Notes under the pieces: generated by a model
The model's database searches: none
Seen by the model: the letters and a program-made list of their open reading frames with translations, nothing else
What the model was told of the DNA's origin: nothing
Program-made: the position numbers and the translations under genes
Shown here: positions 6,940 through 18,458 of the stretch, piece by piece
How the letters are laid out: each line of letters begins with the position of its first letter
Numbering within the stretch: position 1 is the stretch's first letter
Assembly: GCA_050116355.1 (NCBI GenBank)
Contig: JASFOV010000012.1
Span: 1-20,664 of the forward strand
DNA: 20,664 nucleotides
Source of the DNA: Anaerolineae bacterium
GTDB lineage: Bacteria; Chloroflexota; Anaerolineae; JAAYZQ01
Reading direction: 5' to 3'

Positions 6940-7281
6940 CTATTTGCCCACCGAAACGTAGTCGGTATAGATACTATCCATGGGAGTCGCGAGAGTTGCC
7001 CACTTTTCCATGGCTGCTGCCCAGGGCTCAAAGACCTGTTGAGCTTCCTTTGACATCTCACCTGGAGAGGGAAAAAATCGGTCGCGAGCTTCGACGCTCT
7101 CAAACTCGTACATCACCAGATACTTACCTTCTCTATCACCCCGGTCACCCCTTAGGAGATAGCTTTCCGAACCTTCAGGTGAGGGGAGTGGATACACCTC
7201 TTCTGTCACAAACCTCTCGAAATCCTCAGCTTTCACTCCTGGCTTGAGCGCGATCATGTGCATACCGAAGACTTTCGACAT
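6940..7281 (-). CDS. Small cytoplasmic protein of 113 aa with a predicted ferredoxin-like beta-alpha-beta-beta-alpha-beta (Dabb-type) fold.
   Basis: MSKVFGMHMIALKPG...KYLVMYEFESVEARD...SIYTDYVSVGK. I prefer the ATG at 7279-7281 (complement) because AAGGAGG sits 8 nt upstream. The track's start at 7299 is a GTG inside that Shine-Dalgarno site. Confidence 0.6.
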   Translation of the reverse strand: MSKVFGMHMIALKPGVKAEDFERFVTEEVYPLPSPEGSESYLLRGDRGDREGKYLVMYEFESVEARDRFFPSPGEMSKEAQQVFEPWAAAMEKWATLATPMDSIYTDYVSVGK

Positions 7282-7770
7282 GACTGGATCCTCCTTCACT
7301 CCAAGGTACAGCTTCCAATAGCCGCATGCCCCACCGGTGACATGCAGCTACACCTCTTGTCAGTTGAGCACACGAACTTTCACTCACCTAATGACAAGAT
7401 CTGATACGTTTGCCATTCAGCAACAAACCGGATTGAACCGTGAACCATAGGTCCGACAAAGCCCGCGTTGACATTCGCAATCCCACGCTATGACTGCATT
7501 TCAATCTGCTTGACCAACTGATTTCGTGTCGGAACATGATGGGTGGCTGCGGTGCAAGGGGCACAATGGCAATGCCGTGAAGAAGCTGCCCCCTGCCGCC
7601 GAAAACATGGATTCCAGTGAGGTTACTGTGTTCTGCGAGGGTACTGTACGCTGCGCTGTCTGTGCTGCTGCTACAACTCCATTATACCTCACGGAAGCAC
7701 GGATGTCAATAGCCCGAATCAAGTCATTCAGAATGTTGCTTCTTGTTCATTTTGCCCTCTCCTCACTTCC

Positions 7771-10025: not shown

Positions 10026-11480
10026 ATGGAATGCGTTTCGTGCAAACAACCGATCCCGCTGGACACCCAGTATTGTCCACGGTGTGGGGCAGACAACACG
10101 GAGTGGCAGCGGCTACAGCAGCGGTCTGGACTGGGACAATGGCTTGACTTTTTCGACAGCACAGTCTGGGCCCATATCTTCTGGATTGTGGTGCTGGGAG
10201 CCGCGTTGCTCATGCTGACCGCGGCCTTCTTTGCAGTGCAAAGCGGTCTCTTCTGGTTCTTGGGAGCTCTGCTGGCTGTGAGTCTATGCACCGCCTTCTA
10301 CTTGCTCGCTTTCGGCTGGCGTTGGAGCATCCGCGAGTACGAGTGGCTCCGGAAGCAGATGGCTCGTTGGAGGCCCCCAGTGCGAAGCTTGGTCGTCGTG
10401 AGCTTCCTTTTGGGTACTCTCTTGCTGCCAGTAGCTGCCTTGCTGCCTGGCCCCGTATCCGCTACGCCCGCAGCCGCCGCCTCAGACCTGCCACCCGTGC
10501 CGGAAGGTCAAAACGGTCCTACGGCAACCTTCACACCACGTCCCACTTCCACCTTCACGCCAGCTCCCATCCGTCAAAGAGAACCAGAACCTGATCCGCC
10601 CATCACTGCCACCCCACCGCCAGATGGAAAGGGCGCGCTTCCGTCAAGCATGACGGAGCCTTGGCTTCTATCAGCGGCTTCGGCTGCGGTGTGGCCGGTC
10701 TCGGCGCTGCTGGCGCCGAGCCAAAACCAGGAGATGGCGGTGCAGCCCCAGGGCACGGCCTTAGACCTGGGAAACCGGCTGGCTCCAGTACTGCTGGGGA
10801 TTGCACTGGGTCTCTACGGCCTGGGATTCGGCTTGGCAGCCGACTTGAGCTTTGCGAGCTGGTTGAATCGGCGGCTACCCCGTCCGATCTTTGCCGATCG
10901 CAGCCGGCTGGCCCGAGTCCTCCGTCGCGAGGCGGAATTCCTGCTGCGTTCGGGGCAAAAGGAGCGGAATTGGGGGACCCAACGCCGCTACGAGCGCTTT
11001 GAGCATGATCAGGACCAATTCGAAATCACTCAGGAGCAGATCCGGGAGTTCTACCGGTCTATGCCACCTGAAGACTTGTCCTCGGCAAGCTGGCTATTGC
11101 CAGAGGGTCAGGAAAACGTCCACGTCAAGTTCACAAACCAGGCACCAGGCGAAGCCAGGGATTCATGGGAGATTTGGGAGAACCGGCCCGCCATGGAGGT
11201 TCAGATCGAGGCGATGGAGCGCACCGACGATGGTGGAATGCGCATCCAGATCGCTGTCTTGGCCGACGACGTGGAGAAGGCAATGCGCCAGGACGGGGAT
11301 ACGGTTCACCTGCGGCTCCGGGGACTGAGCCACTACGAACTAACAGCAGACCTCTGGGGCTGGCCCACGGAACTGAGCGAAACCGATGACTACCGGCTCG
11401 TACAAGTCGTCAGACGGGACGTATCGGTCATTGATCCGCCGGAAGCGATCCCCCTGCCCAAGCTGGAGGAAGCCGAGTGA
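10026..11480 (+). CDS. Zinc-ribbon (CxxC-x10-CxxC) membrane protein with about 5 TM helices, a Pro/Thr-rich linker and a C-terminal soluble domain of about 200 aa with no family I can name.
   Basis: N-terminus MECVSCKQPIPLDTQYCPRCG. Hydrophobic helices follow. Linker TFTPRPTSTFTPAPI...PPITATPPPDG. 484 aa. The stop is 4 nt before the psuK ATG. Confidence 0.65.
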   Translation: MECVSCKQPIPLDTQYCPRCGADNTEWQRLQQRSGLGQWLDFFDSTVWAHIFWIVVLGAALLMLTAAFFAVQSGLFWFLGALLAVSLCTAFYLLAFGWRWSIREYEWLRKQMARWRPPVRSLVVVSFLLGTLLLPVAALLPGPVSATPAAAASDLPPVPEGQNGPTATFTPRPTSTFTPAPIRQREPEPDPPITATPPPDGKGALPSSMTEPWLLSAASAAVWPVSALLAPSQNQEMAVQPQGTALDLGNRLAPVLLGIALGLYGLGFGLAADLSFASWLNRRLPRPIFADRSRLARVLRREAEFLLRSGQKERNWGTQRRYERFEHDQDQFEITQEQIREFYRSMPPEDLSSASWLLPEGQENVHVKFTNQAPGEARDSWEIWENRPAMEVQIEAMERTDDGGMRIQIAVLADDVEKAMRQDGDTVHLRLRGLSHYELTADLWGWPTELSETDDYRLVQVVRRDVSVIDPPEAIPLPKLEEAE

Positions 11481-11484
11481 GACC

Positions 11485-12408
11485 ATGAGCCATATACTTG
11501 TCATCGGCGCGGCGAGCATCGACACGAAGGGTCGCGCTGACCAGCCATTCCAACGCGGTACTTCGACTCCGGGCGCTATCCGTGTCAGCGTTGGTGGAGT
11601 CGGTCGCAATGTCGCCGAGAACCTGGTACGGTTGGGAGAGACCGTGGTTCTGGTGTCAGCCGTAGGTGACGACGGATCCGGACGCCGTATTCTCAACCAG
11701 GCGGACGAGTGCGGGATCGACATGAGCCACGTCATCGTGGCTCATGAGCACCGCACGGCCGCCTATCTCGCCGTTCTGGACGAGACGGGCAATACGGTCA
11801 TGTCGGTCGACGATATGTCCATCAACCGCGAAGTGATTACGCCGGTGTACATCTACCATCGTCGTGCTCTCTTTCGTGACGCCCAGATGGTAGTCGTCGA
11901 CGCCAATCTGTCACCTTCCACGCTGCGCACCATCTTTGCCCAAGCCGAAAAATACGACGTGCCGATCTGCGCCGATCCAACGACAGCAACACTAGCGCCA
12001 CGCCTCAAGCCCTACCTCTGCCAGCTGGCACTAGTCGCGCCCAACGCCGCTGAGGCCGAAGCCCTATGCGGGGTGCAGGTCACCGACCGGGAGAGCGCGT
12101 TGGACGCAGCCCAGAGATTGGCTGGTTTGGGCGCCCGCCTGGCCATCGTCACCTTGGGTGCCACAGGGCTCGTCTATGCCACCTCGCACGAAAGCGGACA
12201 CGTACCAGCCATTGAGGTCGAGGTCGTAGATCTCACAGGCGCCGGGGACGCCTTGACAGCCGGCGTGGTGTTCGGCTTGCTGAACGAGTTCCCCACTGAC
12301 GAGGCTGTCCGGCTGGGAGCATCGGCAGCCGCACTCACACTGCATAGTCGCGAGACGGTTTGCCCAACCTTGAGCCTTGAGCGCCTATACGATCAACTGA
12401 GGTTCTGA
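11485..12408 (+). CDS. psuK: Pseudouridine kinase (PfkB family).
   Basis: PfkB signature VDLTGAGDALTAGVVFGL. About 307 aa. Sits immediately upstream of psuG. The ATG at 11485 is in frame with track ORF 11386..12408. Confidence 0.75.
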   Translation: MSHILVIGAASIDTKGRADQPFQRGTSTPGAIRVSVGGVGRNVAENLVRLGETVVLVSAVGDDGSGRRILNQADECGIDMSHVIVAHEHRTAAYLAVLDETGNTVMSVDDMSINREVITPVYIYHRRALFRDAQMVVVDANLSPSTLRTIFAQAEKYDVPICADPTTATLAPRLKPYLCQLALVAPNAAEAEALCGVQVTDRESALDAAQRLAGLGARLAIVTLGATGLVYATSHESGHVPAIEVEVVDLTGAGDALTAGVVFGLLNEFPTDEAVRLGASAAALTLHSRETVCPTLSLERLYDQLRF

Positions 12409-12418
12409 CCGAGAGCAT

Positions 12419-13339
12419 ATGACACGACCCATGCACCTGAGCAGCGAGATCCAAGCTGCCCAGGACAGTAACCTACCCATCGTCGCCCTGGAATCGACTG
12501 TCATTGCCCATGGCTTGCCCTACCCCACCAACCTGGACACAGCACGCCGGATGGAAGCCATCGTGCGGGAGAATCAAGCCGTGCCGGCCACGATTGCAGT
12601 GCTACAAGGACAGCTGCGAGTTGGCCTTTCCGCGGATGAACTGGAACATCTGGCCCGAGACTCCAACATCCGGAAAGCCAGCCGGCGGGATCTACCCATT
12701 TTGGTCGCCGAGAAAGGGGATGGGGCAACAACTGTTGCCGCCACAGCGACCATTGCCGCCTGGGCAGGGATCGAGGTCTTTGCCACTGGTGGCATCGGTG
12801 GCGTACACCGGGATCCCCCCTTTGACATCTCCAATGACCTGCCGACTTTGGCTCAGGTGCCAGTCACGGTTGTATGTTCTGGCGCCAAGTCTATCCTGAA
12901 CCTGCGAGCAACTCTGGAGTGGCTGGAGACAGCCGGCGTCCCCATTGTTGGCTTTGGTACAGACGAGTTTCCAGCCTTCTACTCCCGAAGCAGCGGTCAC
13001 AAGGTTGACGTCCGGGCGGACACCCCAGACCAGGTGGCGAACCTGGTGCACAGCCAGCGCCAGCTGGGCTTGGGCGGTGGTCTACTCGTGACTGTGCCTG
13101 TCCCAGCATCAGCCGCCCTGTCCAATGAGTACCTGGAAGCGAGCATCACGGCAGCACTGCAGATGGCACAGAAGGAAGGCATAACCGGCAGCGCCACCAC
13201 ACCATTCTTGCTGGATTGGATCGTGGATCAGACCCAGGGCGCAAGCTTGAAGGCCAATGTGGCCTTGCTGGAAAACAACGCCAAGGTTGGCGCACAGGTC
13301 GCCATGGCGGTACAGCAACTCAAAACACAAGGAACCTAG
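12419..13339 (+). CDS. psuG: Pseudouridine-5'-phosphate glycosidase (YeiN/IndA-like).
   Basis: N-terminal LESTVIAHGLPYP. TGGIGGVHRD. 306 aa. Confidence 0.85.
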   Translation: MTRPMHLSSEIQAAQDSNLPIVALESTVIAHGLPYPTNLDTARRMEAIVRENQAVPATIAVLQGQLRVGLSADELEHLARDSNIRKASRRDLPILVAEKGDGATTVAATATIAAWAGIEVFATGGIGGVHRDPPFDISNDLPTLAQVPVTVVCSGAKSILNLRATLEWLETAGVPIVGFGTDEFPAFYSRSSGHKVDVRADTPDQVANLVHSQRQLGLGGGLLVTVPVPASAALSNEYLEASITAALQMAQKEGITGSATTPFLLDWIVDQTQGASLKANVALLENNAKVGAQVAMAVQQLKTQGT

Positions 13340-13342
13340 TTC

Positions 13343-14026
13343 ATGACCTGGAAGCCAGACTATACAGCGCTCATCGTGTCGTACGCTTATGTTTTCTCGG
13401 TTATCGGTGTAGCCGAACTATTGCGGCGGCTGGGCAAGCGTCCCCAGGAATTCACGCGCAAGTTCATCCATATTGGCGTGGGCATGTGGGTCGTGGGCAC
13501 AGTGTTCCTGTTCGAGACTTGGTACCTGGCCCTCATCCCGCCGATCTCCTTCATCGTCATCAATGCACTTTCCTATTGGCGCGGCACCTTCCAGGCAATG
13601 GAAGGCGGCGACAGAGGCAATCTGGGTACCGTCTACTTCCCTCTATCGTTTGCAGTGCTCATCTATTGCTTCTGGAGCCAGCCAGTCCTCATGGTGGCCA
13701 GTCTGATGCCCCTAACCTGGGGGGATGCTATGGCAGGTCTGGTAGGAAAGCGGTACGGCCACTACCGCTATACCATCGCCGGGCGATCCCGCTCCGTGGA
13801 AGGATCGGTCGCCATGCTGTTTTGGAGCTGGATCACGACCTCCCTGGCGCTATTCATCATGCCATACCTGCTGGGCAAGCCACTCATAAACTGGCTGCTA
13901 GCCCTGATCTATGGTGGGGCCATCGCAGTGGTCTGCACGCTGGTCGAGGCCCTCACGCCCTGGGGGCTGGACAACTTGACCATCCCGGCTGCCACCTGGT
14001 TGCTCCTGGACTTGCTGCGGAATTGA
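13343..14026 (+). CDS. CTP-dependent polyprenol/diacylglycerol kinase-like integral membrane protein (CdsA / dolichol kinase / phytol kinase superfamily).
   Basis: 6-7 TM helices. C-terminal motif WGDAMAGLVGKRYGHYRYTIAGRSRSVEGSVAMLF (GD..A..G...G.....KS.EGS pattern). Starts 3 nt after the psuG stop. Confidence 0.65.
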   Translation: MTWKPDYTALIVSYAYVFSVIGVAELLRRLGKRPQEFTRKFIHIGVGMWVVGTVFLFETWYLALIPPISFIVINALSYWRGTFQAMEGGDRGNLGTVYFPLSFAVLIYCFWSQPVLMVASLMPLTWGDAMAGLVGKRYGHYRYTIAGRSRSVEGSVAMLFWSWITTSLALFIMPYLLGKPLINWLLALIYGGAIAVVCTLVEALTPWGLDNLTIPAATWLLLDLLRN

Positions 14027-14217: not shown

Positions 14218-14246
14218 TTGACGGCAGCGCCAAAGTGTGGTATAGT
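14218..14246 (+). promoter_or_regulatory. Promoter of the dksA/traR-like gene: TTGACG, 17 nt, extended -10 TGgTATAGT.
   Basis: TTGACG at 14218-14223, a 17-nt spacer, TG at 14238-14239 and TATAGT at 14241-14246. The ATG at 14302 has GGGAGG 6 nt upstream. Confidence 0.55.
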
Positions 14247-14301: not shown

Positions 14302-14664
14302 ATGACTGCCGTGACAACACATGCTGAGTCCAACACTGCAAGGTTACAGCAAGAACGCCAGGAGACAGTCGAAAAACTTGAGCGATTGAACAGTGAGCTG
14401 CGGGCGCTGGCTGAACCAAGTGCTGATGAGGGAGATACCGATGCCTACGAGCGGGAAAAGGTGTTGGCTCTGGTGCACAGTCTGAAACGCAAGTTAGAGT
14501 CTCTCGACCATGCACTGGAGATGGCCAAGAAGGGTACCTACGGTATCTGCGAAAGCTGCGGTGACCGCATTGACCGCGCCCGTTTGGAGATTCTGCCGCA
14601 GGCGACTCTGTGCCTGAAGTGCCAGCGTGTCTACGAACGACGCAACAAGCGAGGCCGGTGGTAG
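14302..14664 (+). CDS. DksA/TraR-family C4-type zinc-finger protein (YteA / general stress protein 16O-like).
   Basis: CESCGDRIDRARLEILPQATLCLKCQ zinc finger with an N-terminal coiled coil. 120 aa. The track ORF 14218..14664 begins at a TTG inside the promoter, so I prefer the ATG at 14302, which has a Shine-Dalgarno site. Confidence 0.75.
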   Translation: MTAVTTHAESNTARLQQERQETVEKLERLNSELRALAEPSADEGDTDAYEREKVLALVHSLKRKLESLDHALEMAKKGTYGICESCGDRIDRARLEILPQATLCLKCQRVYERRNKRGRW

Positions 14665-14699: not shown

Positions 14700-14728
14700 T
14701 TGACAAAGCAGAATCGCTGTGCTATAAT
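14700..14728 (+). promoter_or_regulatory. Consensus sigma70 promoter: TTGACA, 17 nt, TGcTATAAT.
   Basis: TTGACA at 14700-14705, a 17-nt spacer, TG at 14720-14721 and TATAAT at 14723-14728. It is rare to see all of these consensus elements together in a high-G+C genome. Confidence 0.65.
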
Positions 14729-14734
14729 TTTTCT

Positions 14735-14837
14735 ACTCTGAGCGTGGCTTGGTTTCGAAGCAGAAACTGCCTAGACAAGCATGAGGATACAAAAAGCGGT
14801 GCAGGAAACGCCAGGCTCACCGGCCTGGCGTTTTTTT
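14735..14837 (+). ncRNA. Candidate ~100-nt small RNA or transcription-attenuator leader upstream of PFOR. Unclassified.
   Basis: The region is bounded by the consensus promoter (transcription start about 14735) and a strong intrinsic terminator ending at 14837. It has no credible ORF: the only one is 24 codons with no Shine-Dalgarno site. A 5' hairpin is possible at 14746-14771. Positions 14739-14748 (UGAGCGUGGC) are complementary in 9 of 10 positions to the terminator left arm at 14810-14819 (GCCAGGCUCA). Confidence 0.4.
14809..14837 (+). terminator. Rho-independent terminator: 8-bp G+C stem CGCCAGGC/GCCUGGCG, 6-nt loop, U7.
   Basis: cgccaggc at 14809-14816, tcaccg at 14817-14822, gcctggcg at 14823-14830, then ttttttt at 14831-14837. 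Confidence 0.75.
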
Positions 14838-14921
14838 CGCGAGTACGGTCTCTAGTAGCATCAGGTCACTACACTATGGTCACACTGATTCACAATGCAC
14901 ATACCAAATCAGGGGGTTTCA

Positions 14922-17900
14922 ATGGCAGAAAGAAAGATGGTAACCATAGATGGCAATGAAGCCGCAGCCTATGTTGCGCACAAGATCAACGAAGTCATTG
15001 CCATCTACCCAATTACGCCCTCAAGCCCAATGGGTGAGCACGCGGATGCCTACTCGGCCGAGGGGCAGACCAACATCTGGGGAACCGTTCCCTTGGTCGT
15101 AGAGATGCAGGCCGAGGGTGGCGCCGCAGGCGCCGTCCACGGAGCGCTGCAGACTGGGGCTCTGACGACGACGTTCACCGCTTCCCAAGGTCTGCTGCTG
15201 ATGATCCCAAACATGTACAAGATTGCAGGCGAGCTAACCCCTACGGTGTTTCACGTTTCGGCGCGTAGTGTTGCCTGCCAGGCCTTGTCCATTTTTGGCG
15301 ATCACAGTGACGTCATGGCCACACGCGCCACAGGATGGGCGTTGTTGTCCAGTAACTCACCTCAGGAGGTCCAGGACCTGGCCTTGATCGCCCAAGCAGC
15401 AACCCTGGAAGCCCGCGTTCCCATTGTCCACTTCTTCGACGGCTTTCGCACCAGCCACGAGATCAACAAGGTCCAACAACTAACTCGCGATGACATTAAA
15501 TTCATGATCGATGACGACCTGGTCCTGAAGCATCGCAACCGCGGATTCAGCCCCGAGCGCCCCTTCATCCGGGGTACCGCCCAGAACCCTGACGTGTTCT
15601 TCCAAGCTCGCGAAACCGTCAACCCATTCTACCTGGAGACACCTGACATTGTCCAGCGAGCCATGACCAAATTTGCGGAGCGCACCGGTCGTCAATACCA
15701 ACTCTTTGAGTATGTCGGCGCACCTGATGCCAACCGTGTGATTGTCATGATGGGTTCGGGAGCAGAAGTGGCCGAGGCCACTGTCGACTATCTAGTGGAC
15801 CAAGGCGAAAAGGTTGGACTGCTGAAGGTCCGCCTTTACCGGCCTTTCAGCGTTGAGCATTTTGTCCAGGCACTGCCAGAGACAATCGAGATCGTCGCCG
15901 CGCTGGACCGGACCAAAGAACCAGGCAGTGCCGGCGAGCCGCTGTACCAGGATTGTCTGACGGCACTGGCTGAAGCAGGCAAAGCGATCAAGGTCGTTGG
16001 CGGACGATACGGGCTCTCGAGTAAGGAGTTCACACCGGCCATGGTCAAAGGTCTCTTTGACGAGATGGCCAAGGAGGAACCCAAGAACCACTTCACGCTG
16101 GGGATCTATGACGATGTCACGCAAACCAGCATCGAGTACGATCCAAACTTCAACATCGAGGCCGACGACGTGGTTCGGGCGATGTTTTACGGTCTTGGTT
16201 CCGATGGCACGGTTGGCGCCAACAAGAACAGTGTCAAGATCATTGGTGAGGACACGGACAACTATGCGCAGGGGTACTTCCAGTACGACTCGAAGAAGGC
16301 CGGCGCTGTCACTGTGTCTCACCTACGCTTTGGCCCGCGTCCCATCCGCCAGACGTGTTTGATCAGCTCGGCGAATTTTGTGGCGTGCCACCAGTTCGTC
16401 TTCCTTGAGAAATTCGACATGCTGGAGAACGCGGCACCCGGCGCAACTTTCCTCCTGAATGCACCCTATGGTCCCGGTGAGGTATGGGACAAACTACCGC
16501 GCAAGGTGCAGGAGCAGATCATTGAGAAGGATCTCAAGGTGTATGTCATCGACGCCTACCGCGTGGCCAAGGACACGGGCATGGGGGTCCGGATCAATAC
16601 CATCATGCAGACCGCCTTCTTTGCCCTGTCGGGGGTGCTGCCCAAAGATGACGCTATCGCCGCCATCAAGAATGCCATCAAAAAGACATATGGCAAGCGT
16701 GGCGAAGCGGTGGTGAAAAAGAACTTTGCTGCCGTCGACATGACACTCTCCAATCTTTTCCGAGTCGAGGTTCTGGATGAGATCACCAGTGAGATCGAGA
16801 TGCCTCCCGTGGTGCCACCCGAGGCACCCGAGTTTGTCCAAACCGTCACCGCCTCCATCATGGCCCGCAAGGGAGACTCGCTCCCCGTATCGGCTCTGCC
16901 GATAGATGGTACCTATCCCTCAGCAACTACCCAGTGGGAGAAGCGGAACATCGCTCTGGAGATTCCGGTGTGGGAGCCAGACATCTGCATCCAATGCGCC
17001 AAGTGTGCCCTGGCCTGCCCGCATGCGACGATCCGTTTCAAAATCTACGATGAAGCCTTGTTGAGCGATGCGCCAGAGGCCTTCAAGTCGGCCAAGGCGC
17101 GAGGCAAAGAGTATGCGGACATGGTGGCCACCATCCAGGTCGCTCCGGAGGATTGCACTGGCTGTGGGCTTTGTGTAGAGGCCTGTCCGGCCAAGGACAG
17201 GACGGAGCCCAAGCGCAAGGCGATCAATATGGCTCCGCAGATGCCGATCCGTCTCCAAGAACGGGAGAACTACGAGTTCTTCCTAGGCCTTCCCGAGTTC
17301 GATCGAACGCAGGTCAAGACCAACTCTGTGAAAGGTTCACAACTCCTGCAGCCGTTGTTCGAGTACTCGGGTGCGTGCGCGGGATGTGGTGAGACGCCGT
17401 ATGTGAAGCTGTTGAGCCAACTGTTTGGCGACCGGGCGCTGGTCTCCAACGCAACCGGCTGCTCTTCGATCTATGGCGGCAACCTGCCCACCACTCCGTG
17501 GGCGATCGACCGGAACGGGCGAGGGCCGACCTGGTCCAATAGCCTCTTTGAGGATAATGCCGAGTTCGGGTTTGGGTTCCGGCTGACTATTGACAAACAG
17601 ACCGAATACGCCCGTGAGTTGGTCCATGAACTGCGGGACGCCATCGGCCCAGAACTGGCCGACGGCCTACTGCAGGCCGAGCAGGTGACAGAAGCAGACA
17701 TCGCTGACCAGCGGGCCCGAGTAGCGGAACTAAAGGAGAAGCTCTCGGAGATGGACGGCCCCCAGGCGGCACAACTGCGCAGCCTGGCAGATATGCTCGT
17801 CAAACGCTCAGTGTGGATCGTCGGAGGCGATGGCTGGGCATACGACATCGGCTATGGCGGTCTGGACCATGTACTAGCATCGGGTAGGAACGTGAACGTG

Positions 17901-18458
17901 CTGGTCCTTGACACGCAGGTATACTCCAATACCGGGGGGCAGATGTCGAAAGCCACGCCGCGGGCGGCAGTCGCCAAGTTTGCGGCTGGTGGCAAGCCCT
18001 TACCCAAGAAAGACCTGGGCAGGATCGCCATGACCTACGGAAACATCTATGTGGCGCAAGTAGCGATGGGCGCTAACGATCGCCAGACGGTTCGGGCTTT
18101 TGTCGAGGGTGAGAGCTATGACGGCCCGAGTCTGATCATCGCCTACAGCCACTGCATCGCCCATGGCTTCAATCTGCGGCTGGGGTTCCAGCAGCAACAG
18201 GCAGCGGTGGATTCAGGCTCGTGGCCGCTGTACCGCTACGACCCGCGCCGCGCTGATGAGGGGCTCAACCCACTACAGCTTGACTCGCGCGCGCCCAAGA
18301 TCCCGTTGCAGGATTATGCCTACAATGAGACCCGCTTCCGGATGCTGACCCAGTCGAAGCCGGAGGAAGCGGAGCGGCTGCTCGCCTTGGCCCAGAAGGA
18401 CATCAACGAGCGCTGGCAGATGTACGAGCAACTGGCATCGCTAGACTATAGTGCTTAG
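14922..18458 (+). CDS. nifJ: Pyruvate:ferredoxin (flavodoxin) oxidoreductase, single-polypeptide NifJ/YdbK type.
   Basis: N-terminus MAERKMVTIDGNEAAAYVAHKINEVIAIYPITPSS. Two 4Fe-4S ferredoxin motifs, CIQCAKCALACP and CTGCGLCVEACP. TPP-binding GGDGWAYDIGYGGLDH. About 1178 aa. The ATG at 14922 has AGGGGG 7 nt upstream. The track start at 14895 adds 9 unlikely residues. Confidence 0.9.
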   Translation: MAERKMVTIDGNEAAAYVAHKINEVIAIYPITPSSPMGEHADAYSAEGQTNIWGTVPLVVEMQAEGGAAGAVHGALQTGALTTTFTASQGLLLMIPNMYKIAGELTPTVFHVSARSVACQALSIFGDHSDVMATRATGWALLSSNSPQEVQDLALIAQAATLEARVPIVHFFDGFRTSHEINKVQQLTRDDIKFMIDDDLVLKHRNRGFSPERPFIRGTAQNPDVFFQARETVNPFYLETPDIVQRAMTKFAERTGRQYQLFEYVGAPDANRVIVMMGSGAEVAEATVDYLVDQGEKVGLLKVRLYRPFSVEHFVQALPETIEIVAALDRTKEPGSAGEPLYQDCLTALAEAGKAIKVVGGRYGLSSKEFTPAMVKGLFDEMAKEEPKNHFTLGIYDDVTQTSIEYDPNFNIEADDVVRAMFYGLGSDGTVGANKNSVKIIGEDTDNYAQGYFQYDSKKAGAVTVSHLRFGPRPIRQTCLISSANFVACHQFVFLEKFDMLENAAPGATFLLNAPYGPGEVWDKLPRKVQEQIIEKDLKVYVIDAYRVAKDTGMGVRINTIMQTAFFALSGVLPKDDAIAAIKNAIKKTYGKRGEAVVKKNFAAVDMTLSNLFRVEVLDEITSEIEMPPVVPPEAPEFVQTVTASIMARKGDSLPVSALPIDGTYPSATTQWEKRNIALEIPVWEPDICIQCAKCALACPHATIRFKIYDEALLSDAPEAFKSAKARGKEYADMVATIQVAPEDCTGCGLCVEACPAKDRTEPKRKAINMAPQMPIRLQERENYEFFLGLPEFDRTQVKTNSVKGSQLLQPLFEYSGACAGCGETPYVKLLSQLFGDRALVSNATGCSSIYGGNLPTTPWAIDRNGRGPTWSNSLFEDNAEFGFGFRLTIDKQTEYARELVHELRDAIGPELADGLLQAEQVTEADIADQRARVAELKEKLSEMDGPQAAQLRSLADMLVKRSVWIVGGDGWAYDIGYGGLDHVLASGRNVNVLVLDTQVYSNTGGQMSKATPRAAVAKFAAGGKPLPKKDLGRIAMTYGNIYVAQVAMGANDRQTVRAFVEGESYDGPSLIIAYSHCIAHGFNLRLGFQQQQAAVDSGSWPLYRYDPRRADEGLNPLQLDSRAPKIPLQDYAYNETRFRMLTQSKPEEAERLLALAQKDINERWQMYEQLASLDYSA

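Follow-up and report, generated by a model that had tools for sequence, protein, structure and literature searches.

A candidate terminator/antiterminator leader ahead of the PFOR gene in an uncultured Anaerolineae bacterium

In an uncultured Anaerolineae bacterium, the gene for pyruvate:ferredoxin oxidoreductase (PFOR) is preceded by a consensus promoter and, just downstream of it, by a conserved element of about 100 nucleotides (nt) with two hairpins, which may act in cis as a terminator/antiterminator attenuator leader of the PFOR mRNA and would probably depend on a factor supplied in trans. The stretch of DNA analysed, called the window below, comprises 20,664 nt of contig JASFOV010000012.1 (assembly GCA_050116355.1), read on the forward strand. 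This assignment, which is drawn from sequence comparison, is adopted here with about even confidence. Given their conservation, the promoter and the two hairpins lie far outside what chance would produce; the element is linked exclusively to PFOR, no other promoter was found ahead of this gene, and two alternative pairings are both conserved, of which the antiterminator complementarity, taken alone, is modestly beyond chance. The leader and the sequences around it consist of the following parts.

14700..14728, + strand: sigma-70-type promoter (-35 TTGACA 14700-05, 17-nt spacer, TG 14720-21, -10 TATAAT 14723-28), a 12/12 match
14735..14837, + strand: predicted leader, which is also the prematurely terminated RNA, ~103 nt (covariance model R1, described below)
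14739..14748, + strand: candidate 5′ strand of the antiterminator, UGAGCGUGGC, which pairs with 14810-14819 at 9/10 positions
14746..14771, + strand: hairpin 1, candidate anti-antiterminator, with a conserved stem and a variable loop
14772..14808, + strand: A-rich linker of ~37-40 nt, unstructured and not conserved (identity and shuffles)
14809..14837, + strand: hairpin 2 and U7, the predicted intrinsic terminator in the window genome (folds and conservation)
14838..14911, + strand: spacer from the terminator to the ribosome-binding site, not conserved and without a promoter
14912..18458, + strand: ribosome-binding site GGGGG (14912-16) and PFOR coding sequence (nifJ-type, 1178 amino acids, ATG 14922; Pfam and start calls)

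The promoter is exactly as the original prediction had drawn it from the letters of the window, TTGACA, 17 nt and TGcTATAAT at 14700-14728. Its extended -10 element occupies 14720-28 and puts the predicted transcription start at ~14735, and only two sites in the 20 kb, scanned on both strands, reach a 12/12 match. TTGACA and TGCTA are invariant in all orthologues, the -10 element matches at five or six of its six positions in 13/13 sequences, and a wider block, CCTTTGACAAA...TCGCTGTGCTATAAT, is also kept. For a 104-nt RNA, ViennaRNA predicts a fold of -36.6 kcal/mol (z = -2.1) in which both hairpin 1 and hairpin 2 are formed, and the folding that had been suggested as a check gives these two hairpins as the dominant state. 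Hairpin 1 has the sequence GGC-uu-GGUUUC-GAAGCA-GAAACU-GCC: its core pairs GGUUUC (14751-56) with GAAACU (14763-68) across a 6-nt loop, and its outer stem pairs GGC (14746-48) with GCC (14769-71), in 9-10 of the 12 sequences. The local hairpin that had been predicted at 14746-14771 is accordingly present, and GGC 14746-48 is common to it and the antiterminator strand. Hairpin 2, the dominant ViennaRNA structure and stable at -16.6 kcal/mol on its own, consists of CGCCAGGC (14809-16), the loop UCACCG (14817-22) and GCCUGGCG (14823-30), followed by U7 (14831-37); the 8-base-pair (bp) GC stem with U7 at 14809-14837, and the PFOR start 85 nt farther on, were both found where they had been placed. 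The GC stem and loop of an intrinsic terminator are present in all lineages, where the stem, CGCCAGGC(U)/(G)GCCUGGCG, has 8-10 bp and -14 to -18 kcal/mol. A simple terminator scan did not pick up hairpin 2, probably on account of a stem extension that consumes A/U pairs. Its left arm and first loop bases, 14810-14819, are the candidate 3′ strand of the antiterminator. The PFOR ATG at 14922 is the 85th base past the U-tract, the identical start is called on metagenome contigs, and the ribosome-binding site GGGGGUUUCUAUG is kept among orthologues.

Orthologous loci were traced to contigs through DksA-like proteins 56-91% identical to that encoded upstream of PFOR in the window, except for L144, which came from a metagenome scan with an alignment of DksA-like proteins. 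The total is at least 13 sequences from at least 12 lineages (the window, L091, L094/95, L179, L097, L181, L183, L185, L187, L189, L193 and L144), with too little variation in the helices for a covariation test. In 12/12 independent lineages, the DksA-like gene is followed by a gap of 214-493 nt and then by PFOR, and the element always lies in this gap in the same orientation as PFOR. The covariance model R1, which was built from 10 sequences of 9 lineages, recovers three more lineages (L187, L189 and L193) at E = 1e-18 to 1e-20. It finds no further match in the rest of the window, no element at the best 80 PFOR genome loci of other taxa, and none in 79/80 more distant metagenome DksA-like loci among the matches listed, the exception, L144, being one of its own training sequences. 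The matches listed in that DksA-like scan are mostly distant homologues; L144 alone among the 80 has PFOR downstream, and L144 alone has the element. The element is likewise absent at three inspected DksA-like loci without PFOR downstream (L099 and L191/L192), and R1 recognises none of the 32 matches of a pattern scan of viral contigs. In L193, where the gap has widened to 493 nt, element and promoter lie close to PFOR: the distance to its ATG is 54 nt, against 313 nt to the stop codon of the DksA-like gene. Because the element stays beside PFOR in L193 and DksA-like loci without PFOR lack it, the comparison indicates that the element belongs with PFOR. PFOR itself was tried as a guide to orthology and given up: the best 80 genome loci by the PFOR N-terminus (63-75% identity, many phyla) have neither intergenic homology nor a DksA-like neighbour. 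The outgroup Anaerolineae locus L006, which has no element, carries a PFOR promoter of the same kind as that in the window, TTGACC-17-TGCTATAAT, ~70 nt ahead of the ATG.

Conservation along the leader is uneven. The mean pairwise identities over 11 lineages are given below; the promoter, like both hairpin stems, is 90-95% identical across lineages.

hairpin 2 stem: 0.95
hairpin 1 stem (GGUUUC/GAAAC): 0.90
hairpin 2 loop, 5′ half (CA; U92 counted with the stem): 0.82
5′ strand: 0.67
tail after hairpin 2: 0.47
hairpin 1 loop: 0.41
hairpin 2 loop, 3′ half: 0.37
linker: 0.35

Between hairpin 2 and the ribosome-binding site, orthologous sequences are unalignable, and the hexaloop of hairpin 1 (14757-14762) is variable except for a G at position 4, which is kept in 12/13 sequences. 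The few changes within the stems are compatible with wobble pairing on the + strand only: G.U to A-U at columns 23:40, U-A to U.G at 92:97 and at 25:38 (the latter in L193), and G-C to G.U at 90:99 of the hairpin 2 stem (L189). Since they pair on this strand only, these changes favour a constraint at the RNA level over one at the DNA level. In addition, a strain variant, L089, which is 99.66% identical over 4 kb, has 8 of its 13 substitutions in 14852-14900 and none in the promoter or the element. All eight substitutions in this 49-nt segment are transitions, and U7 is shortened to U6; the cluster could be a local divergence hot spot or a recombination patch.

The candidate antiterminator joins 14739-14748 (UGAGCGUGGC) to 14810-14819 (GCCAGGCUCA), and the 9/10 complementarity noted originally was confirmed, with an RNAduplex energy of -17.7 kcal/mol. 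The helix has two parts, P1a (UGAGC:GCUCA) and P1b (GGCG:CGCC). Only 1% of shuffles of the 5′ segment equal the complementarity seen in the window. In 13/13 sequences the best upstream partner of the left arm of hairpin 2 is the 5′-terminal 20 nt, and when nascent transcripts are folded without the right arm of hairpin 2, the minimum-energy fold places the 5′ strand onto the left arm and loop in ~10 of 12 sequences. In the alignment of 12 sequences (A5), 87% of the antiterminator cells are paired, versus 32-46% after displacement of the partner by 1-3 columns. A helix that excludes the terminator by using its 5′ arm, as expected of an attenuator, is kept in register in 13/13 sequences. The conservation of UCA in the loop of hairpin 2 would be explained by P1a and by nothing else found, and it is not needed by the hairpin itself. 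The alignment of orthologues that had been proposed to examine this pairing gave a divided answer: the register is conserved, but no pair changes on both sides, and all changes in the antiterminator are one-sided and wobble-compatible.

Scanning of 12 sequences between hairpin 2 and the PFOR ATG revealed no sigma-70-like site of at least 9/12 and no extended -10 element, other promoter types not being scanned systematically; a second promoter before PFOR, including a sigma-54-like one looked for by eye, was thus set aside as a candidate. With no other promoter found before PFOR in any lineage, the gene is most likely transcribed from the consensus promoter by polymerase that reads through hairpin 2, and this dependence would by definition make the leader an attenuator.

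What follows is inferred from the sequence: that the 14700 promoter is used, that transcripts end at the U-tract, that read-through is regulated, and what kind of effector acts. RNA polymerase would start at ~14735 from the near-perfect extended -10 promoter and transcribe in turn the 5′ strand, the invariant hairpin of 6 bp with its 6-nt loop, an unstructured spacer of ~40 nt and the invariant GC hairpin, followed by U7 in the window genome. When the GC hairpin forms, transcription would stop at ~14837 and an RNA of ~100 nt would be released, PFOR being made only upon read-through. In the other state, the 5′ strand (UGAGC..GGC) would pair with the left arm of the terminator and the first bases of its loop (GCC..GCUCA) and so permit read-through, and the outer stem of hairpin 1 (GGC/GCC), by competing for the same GGC, would be the anti-antiterminator. 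Because the terminator is thermodynamically favoured, switching would need either kinetic trapping or a trans-acting factor; the antiterminator pairing, if functional, probably needs such a factor. Given the invariant stems and the lack of a conserved junction or aptamer, the effector would be a macromolecule, such as a protein, that recognises hairpin 1 or the antiterminator helix, and not a small-molecule ligand.

The original prediction had likened the region to ligand- or protein-controlled leaders, and the ligand-binding part of that comparison was not sustained: the linker is 35% identical and no more structured than shuffles, and neither covarying helices nor an aptamer-like core of the riboswitch kind were found. 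The folding energy of the linker is no better than that of dinucleotide shuffles in 12/12 sequences tested, and a third helix in the linker was discarded on the same energies. Several other candidates for a regulatory signal were also rejected. A leader peptide could use only one AUG frame (14781, 24 codons), which has no Shine-Dalgarno sequence and, by inspection, is absent from orthologues. A 5′-terminal CUCU(U)GA could pair with the Shine-Dalgarno sequence, but such pairing reaches significance only in the window and L091 and is absent elsewhere. As for a Rho utilisation site or CsrA-type GGA sites, the linker is, by inspection, G-rich and not C-rich, and its GGA motifs are not conserved.

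A number of observations weigh against an attenuator. Once any upstream partner is allowed, 7% of shuffles match the antiterminator complementarity of the window (p ~0.07); the fraction of shuffles doing equally well ranges from 0.007 to 0.71 among the individual sequences, and in L187 the complementarity is no better than in shuffles. No compensatory change was found in any helix, the covariation score within the antiterminator of A5 is below the shuffle mean, and conserved complementarity is the whole basis of the RNA structures. The terminated fold is favoured over the antiterminated one by 6-14 kcal/mol, and only a few nt separate the emergence of the antiterminator's 3′ strand from that of the terminator's right arm. 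Hairpin 2 is invariant in both arms, even at positions outside the antiterminator, and the attenuator scheme leaves this unexplained. Finally, the U-tract is good in seven lineages (the window, L091, L094/95, L183, L187, L189 and L193) and degenerate in the other five of the 12 (L179, L097, L181, L185 and L144; the five tracts are UUCGUAC, UUUACGU, UCUUUAC, UUCGCCU and CCUGAUUUUUU); because of these degenerate tracts, the conserved function of hairpin 2 may not be termination. The antiterminator pairing is therefore best described as conserved and not proven.

These points bear differently on the three other explanations that have to be weighed. The original prediction had offered either an attenuator or a small RNA. 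The attenuator gained from an element that stands ahead of PFOR in 12 lineages with its pairings in register and no other promoter, and lost from the lack of covariation, the favoured terminator and the five poor U-tracts. The small RNA, which we regard as possible though rather unlikely, would be a stand-alone gene with its own promoter and a terminator shared with the DksA-like gene, whose ~100-nt product acts in trans: either the conserved 5′ end would base-pair, or hairpin 1 would sequester a protein, and read-through into PFOR would be incidental; a leader with both functions is counted here. Such a gene would account for a consensus promoter followed by a canonical terminator (8-10 bp and U7 in the window, strong U-tracts in 7/12 lineages) and for the strongly favoured terminator state, from which the short RNA should be the main product. 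It would also fit the absence of any terminator in the window between the DksA-like stop codon and the 14700 promoter, because of which hairpin 2 would also end the DksA-like transcript. The same absence appears to hold across lineages, L193 being a possible exception. The 3′ strand of hairpin 1, (A)GAAACUGCC (14762-14771), could pair with AGGGGGUUUC (14911-14921), which spans the Shine-Dalgarno sequence of PFOR with its spacer, at -7 to -14.5 kcal/mol, and this match keeps its register in 12/13 sequences, as a small RNA acting on PFOR might. In sequence, the 5′ strand of hairpin 1 accordingly resembles the ribosome-binding site; the site GGAGGUUUC is also present in an outgroup that has no element, which makes the match of doubtful significance. 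However, the A-rich single-stranded linker, where a seed would usually lie, is the least conserved part (0.35), and it is the stems that are conserved; the conserved 5′ strand is predicted to be paired, so that no conserved single-stranded seed was found. Nor would a small RNA explain why PFOR lacks a separate promoter in every lineage, why the element is never found away from PFOR and follows it in the expanded gap of L193, or why five lineages have no good U-tract. The small-RNA alternative is weakened in this way by the poor conservation of its single-stranded stretch, and a role in trans for the short RNA, which is expected to be abundant, may nevertheless exist beside the attenuator.

Distinctly unlikely, in our estimate, is a constitutive, unregulated leader, in which hairpin 2 is a leaky terminator of the DksA-like gene within the PFOR 5′ untranslated region, the hairpins stabilise or process the mRNA and the complementarity is incidental. 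This would agree with the modest significance of the complementarity, with the lack of covariation for the alternative pairing and of any aptamer-like structure, and with a variable U-tract, which suggests no tight selection on the strength of termination, but the near-invariance of the two stems and of the hairpin 2 loop in its 5′ half, among lineages whose flanking protein is only 56-70% identical, goes well beyond the needs of an ordinary terminator or stabilising hairpin, and two mutually exclusive pairings are both in register. The inverted repeats could also be read as DNA operators, GTTTC-N6-GAAAC and CGCCAGGC-N6-GCCTGGCG, bound by dimeric transcription factors that act as elongation roadblocks, and no covariation would then be expected; the half-sites are indeed invariant and the spacer is fixed at 6 and variable in sequence in both repeats. 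This is very improbable, however, as the centres lie at ~+33 and ~+85, downstream of the start and unusual for operators, a U-tract follows hairpin 2 in seven lineages, UCA is conserved inside the 'spacer' of the second repeat, no further copy of either repeat is present in the 20-kb window, and the one-sided changes described above (columns 23:40, 92:97, 90:99 and 25:38) are G.U-compatible on the + strand only.

By analogy, the attenuator would be a new, clade-restricted terminator/antiterminator leader within a known class. The closest counterpart in logic is PyrR attenuation in the Bacillus pyr operon, where a protein controls the choice among anti-antiterminator, antiterminator and terminator. 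As there, a 5′ hairpin in the PFOR leader would sequester the 5′ strand of the antiterminator, whose 3′ strand is the 5′ arm of the terminator, and a protein binding the first hairpin is the type of control proposed here. The PFOR leader differs in that it has no similarity to the PyrR-binding loop and no PyrR-related gene nearby, and in that its antiterminator is a long-range helix enclosing ~60 nt and not a local stem-loop. With the adenine ON riboswitch of pbuE (ydhL) it shares a closing helix, in which the 5′ end pairs with a 3′ strand overlapping the terminator at its 5′ arm, as well as a favoured terminator, so that read-through would require the closing helix to be trapped during transcription. 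Unlike pbuE, it has no multi-helix aptamer, conserved junction nucleotides, covariation or match to an Rfam riboswitch, and encloses just one hairpin and an unstructured, non-conserved linker. The RNAs bound by ANTAR proteins (EutV, NasR and AmiR) resemble it in having a hexaloop hairpin upstream of an intrinsic terminator, with G4 kept in 12/13 PFOR-leader sequences. The ANTAR motif is defined by a tandem pair of hairpins whose hexaloops carry A1 and G4, and the second one has to overlap the terminator (PMC3369931). An ANTAR dual-hairpin target was rejected for the PFOR leader, in which position 1 is mostly G, manual inspection revealed no second hexaloop hairpin upstream of the left arm, and the linker has ~40 nt.

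Among small RNAs that share a terminator or derive from a leader, DapZ and MicL represent the 3′ untranslated region type, and SreA and EutX are derived from riboswitches. The likeness to these lies in an internal promoter after an upstream stop codon, a shared terminator and a short terminated RNA that is expected to be abundant; the PFOR leader differs by having no conserved single-stranded seed and a downstream gene without its own promoter. The original prediction could not assign the element to any riboswitch or small-RNA class, and the Rfam search it had suggested agrees: Rfam 15 at the gathering score gave no match in the window, in 11 orthologous loci or at the outgroup locus L006. At a permissive E-value, the best sub-threshold match was Hrs12 (23.4 bits against a threshold of 70, E = 0.14), a similarity of the terminator only. 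A literature search for RNA motifs upstream of PFOR in Chloroflexi and for ANTAR RNA motifs turned up no report of such an element.

In the window, the genes around the leader all lie on the + strand in the order PfkB kinase, IndA-like glycosidase, 227-amino-acid protein, DksA/TraR gene, 257-nt intergenic region, PFOR, DHODH-like gene and GNAT acetyltransferase. The gene directly upstream is the following.

14302..14664, + strand: DksA/TraR-type C4 zinc-finger gene, 120 amino acids (Pfam PF01258, E = 1e-13)

It has its own promoter-like site at 14218-14246, and its exact protein is present on 16 metagenome contigs; the contig of the window recurs in several JGI, ENA and Logan metagenomes. The PFOR protein contains the Pfam domains POR_N, PFOR_II, POR, EKR, Fer4 and TPP_enzyme_C. 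The DksA/TraR-type gene is the invariant upstream neighbour of PFOR in 12/12 lineages, a pairing with no obvious functional explanation, and the genes farther upstream differ. The PfkB kinase, the IndA-like pseudouridine-5′-phosphate glycosidase and the conserved 227-amino-acid protein, which has no Pfam match, form one block at 11386-14026 that is syntenic in several, not all, lineages carrying the element. In L097 and L181, a divergent regulator of the GntR/FCD family, some members of which are pyruvate- and lactate-responsive repressors, adjoins the DksA-like/PFOR unit upstream of the DksA-like gene, where L181 also has a RACo-like reductive activator. No tRNA or tmRNA genes were found in the window. 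The second perfect 12/12 promoter, TTGACA-17-TATAAT at 7681-7709 on the - strand, is followed by a leader of ~395 nt (7280-7675) and then by the ATG, at 7280, of a small open reading frame without a Pfam match; this leader has no Rfam match, and its predicted fold is no better than shuffles.

In anaerobic fermenters, PFOR opens the route by which pyruvate yields acetyl-CoA and reduced ferredoxin, and the Anaerolineae are abundant yet almost uncultured in digesters, sediments and mats. The literature search found no report of RNA-level control of PFOR in Anaerolineae. A broader possibility, which we consider unlikely, is that the leader represents a new class of riboregulator dedicated to PFOR, an ON switch in which the antiterminator helix or the hexaloop hairpin would be captured by an effector of redox or carbon status, and the terminated RNA would act in trans as well. 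Such an effector may be a protein, or it may be a metabolite, with CoA, acetyl-CoA and pyruvate as examples, and the action in trans may proceed through the 3′ strand of hairpin 1 on the PFOR ribosome-binding site. With or without such a class, a conserved terminator leader between a consensus promoter and PFOR would imply that the flux of carbon and electrons in these bacteria is gated after the initiation of transcription, and this compact RNA of ~100 nt with two invariant hairpins would add an uncatalogued family to RNA databases.

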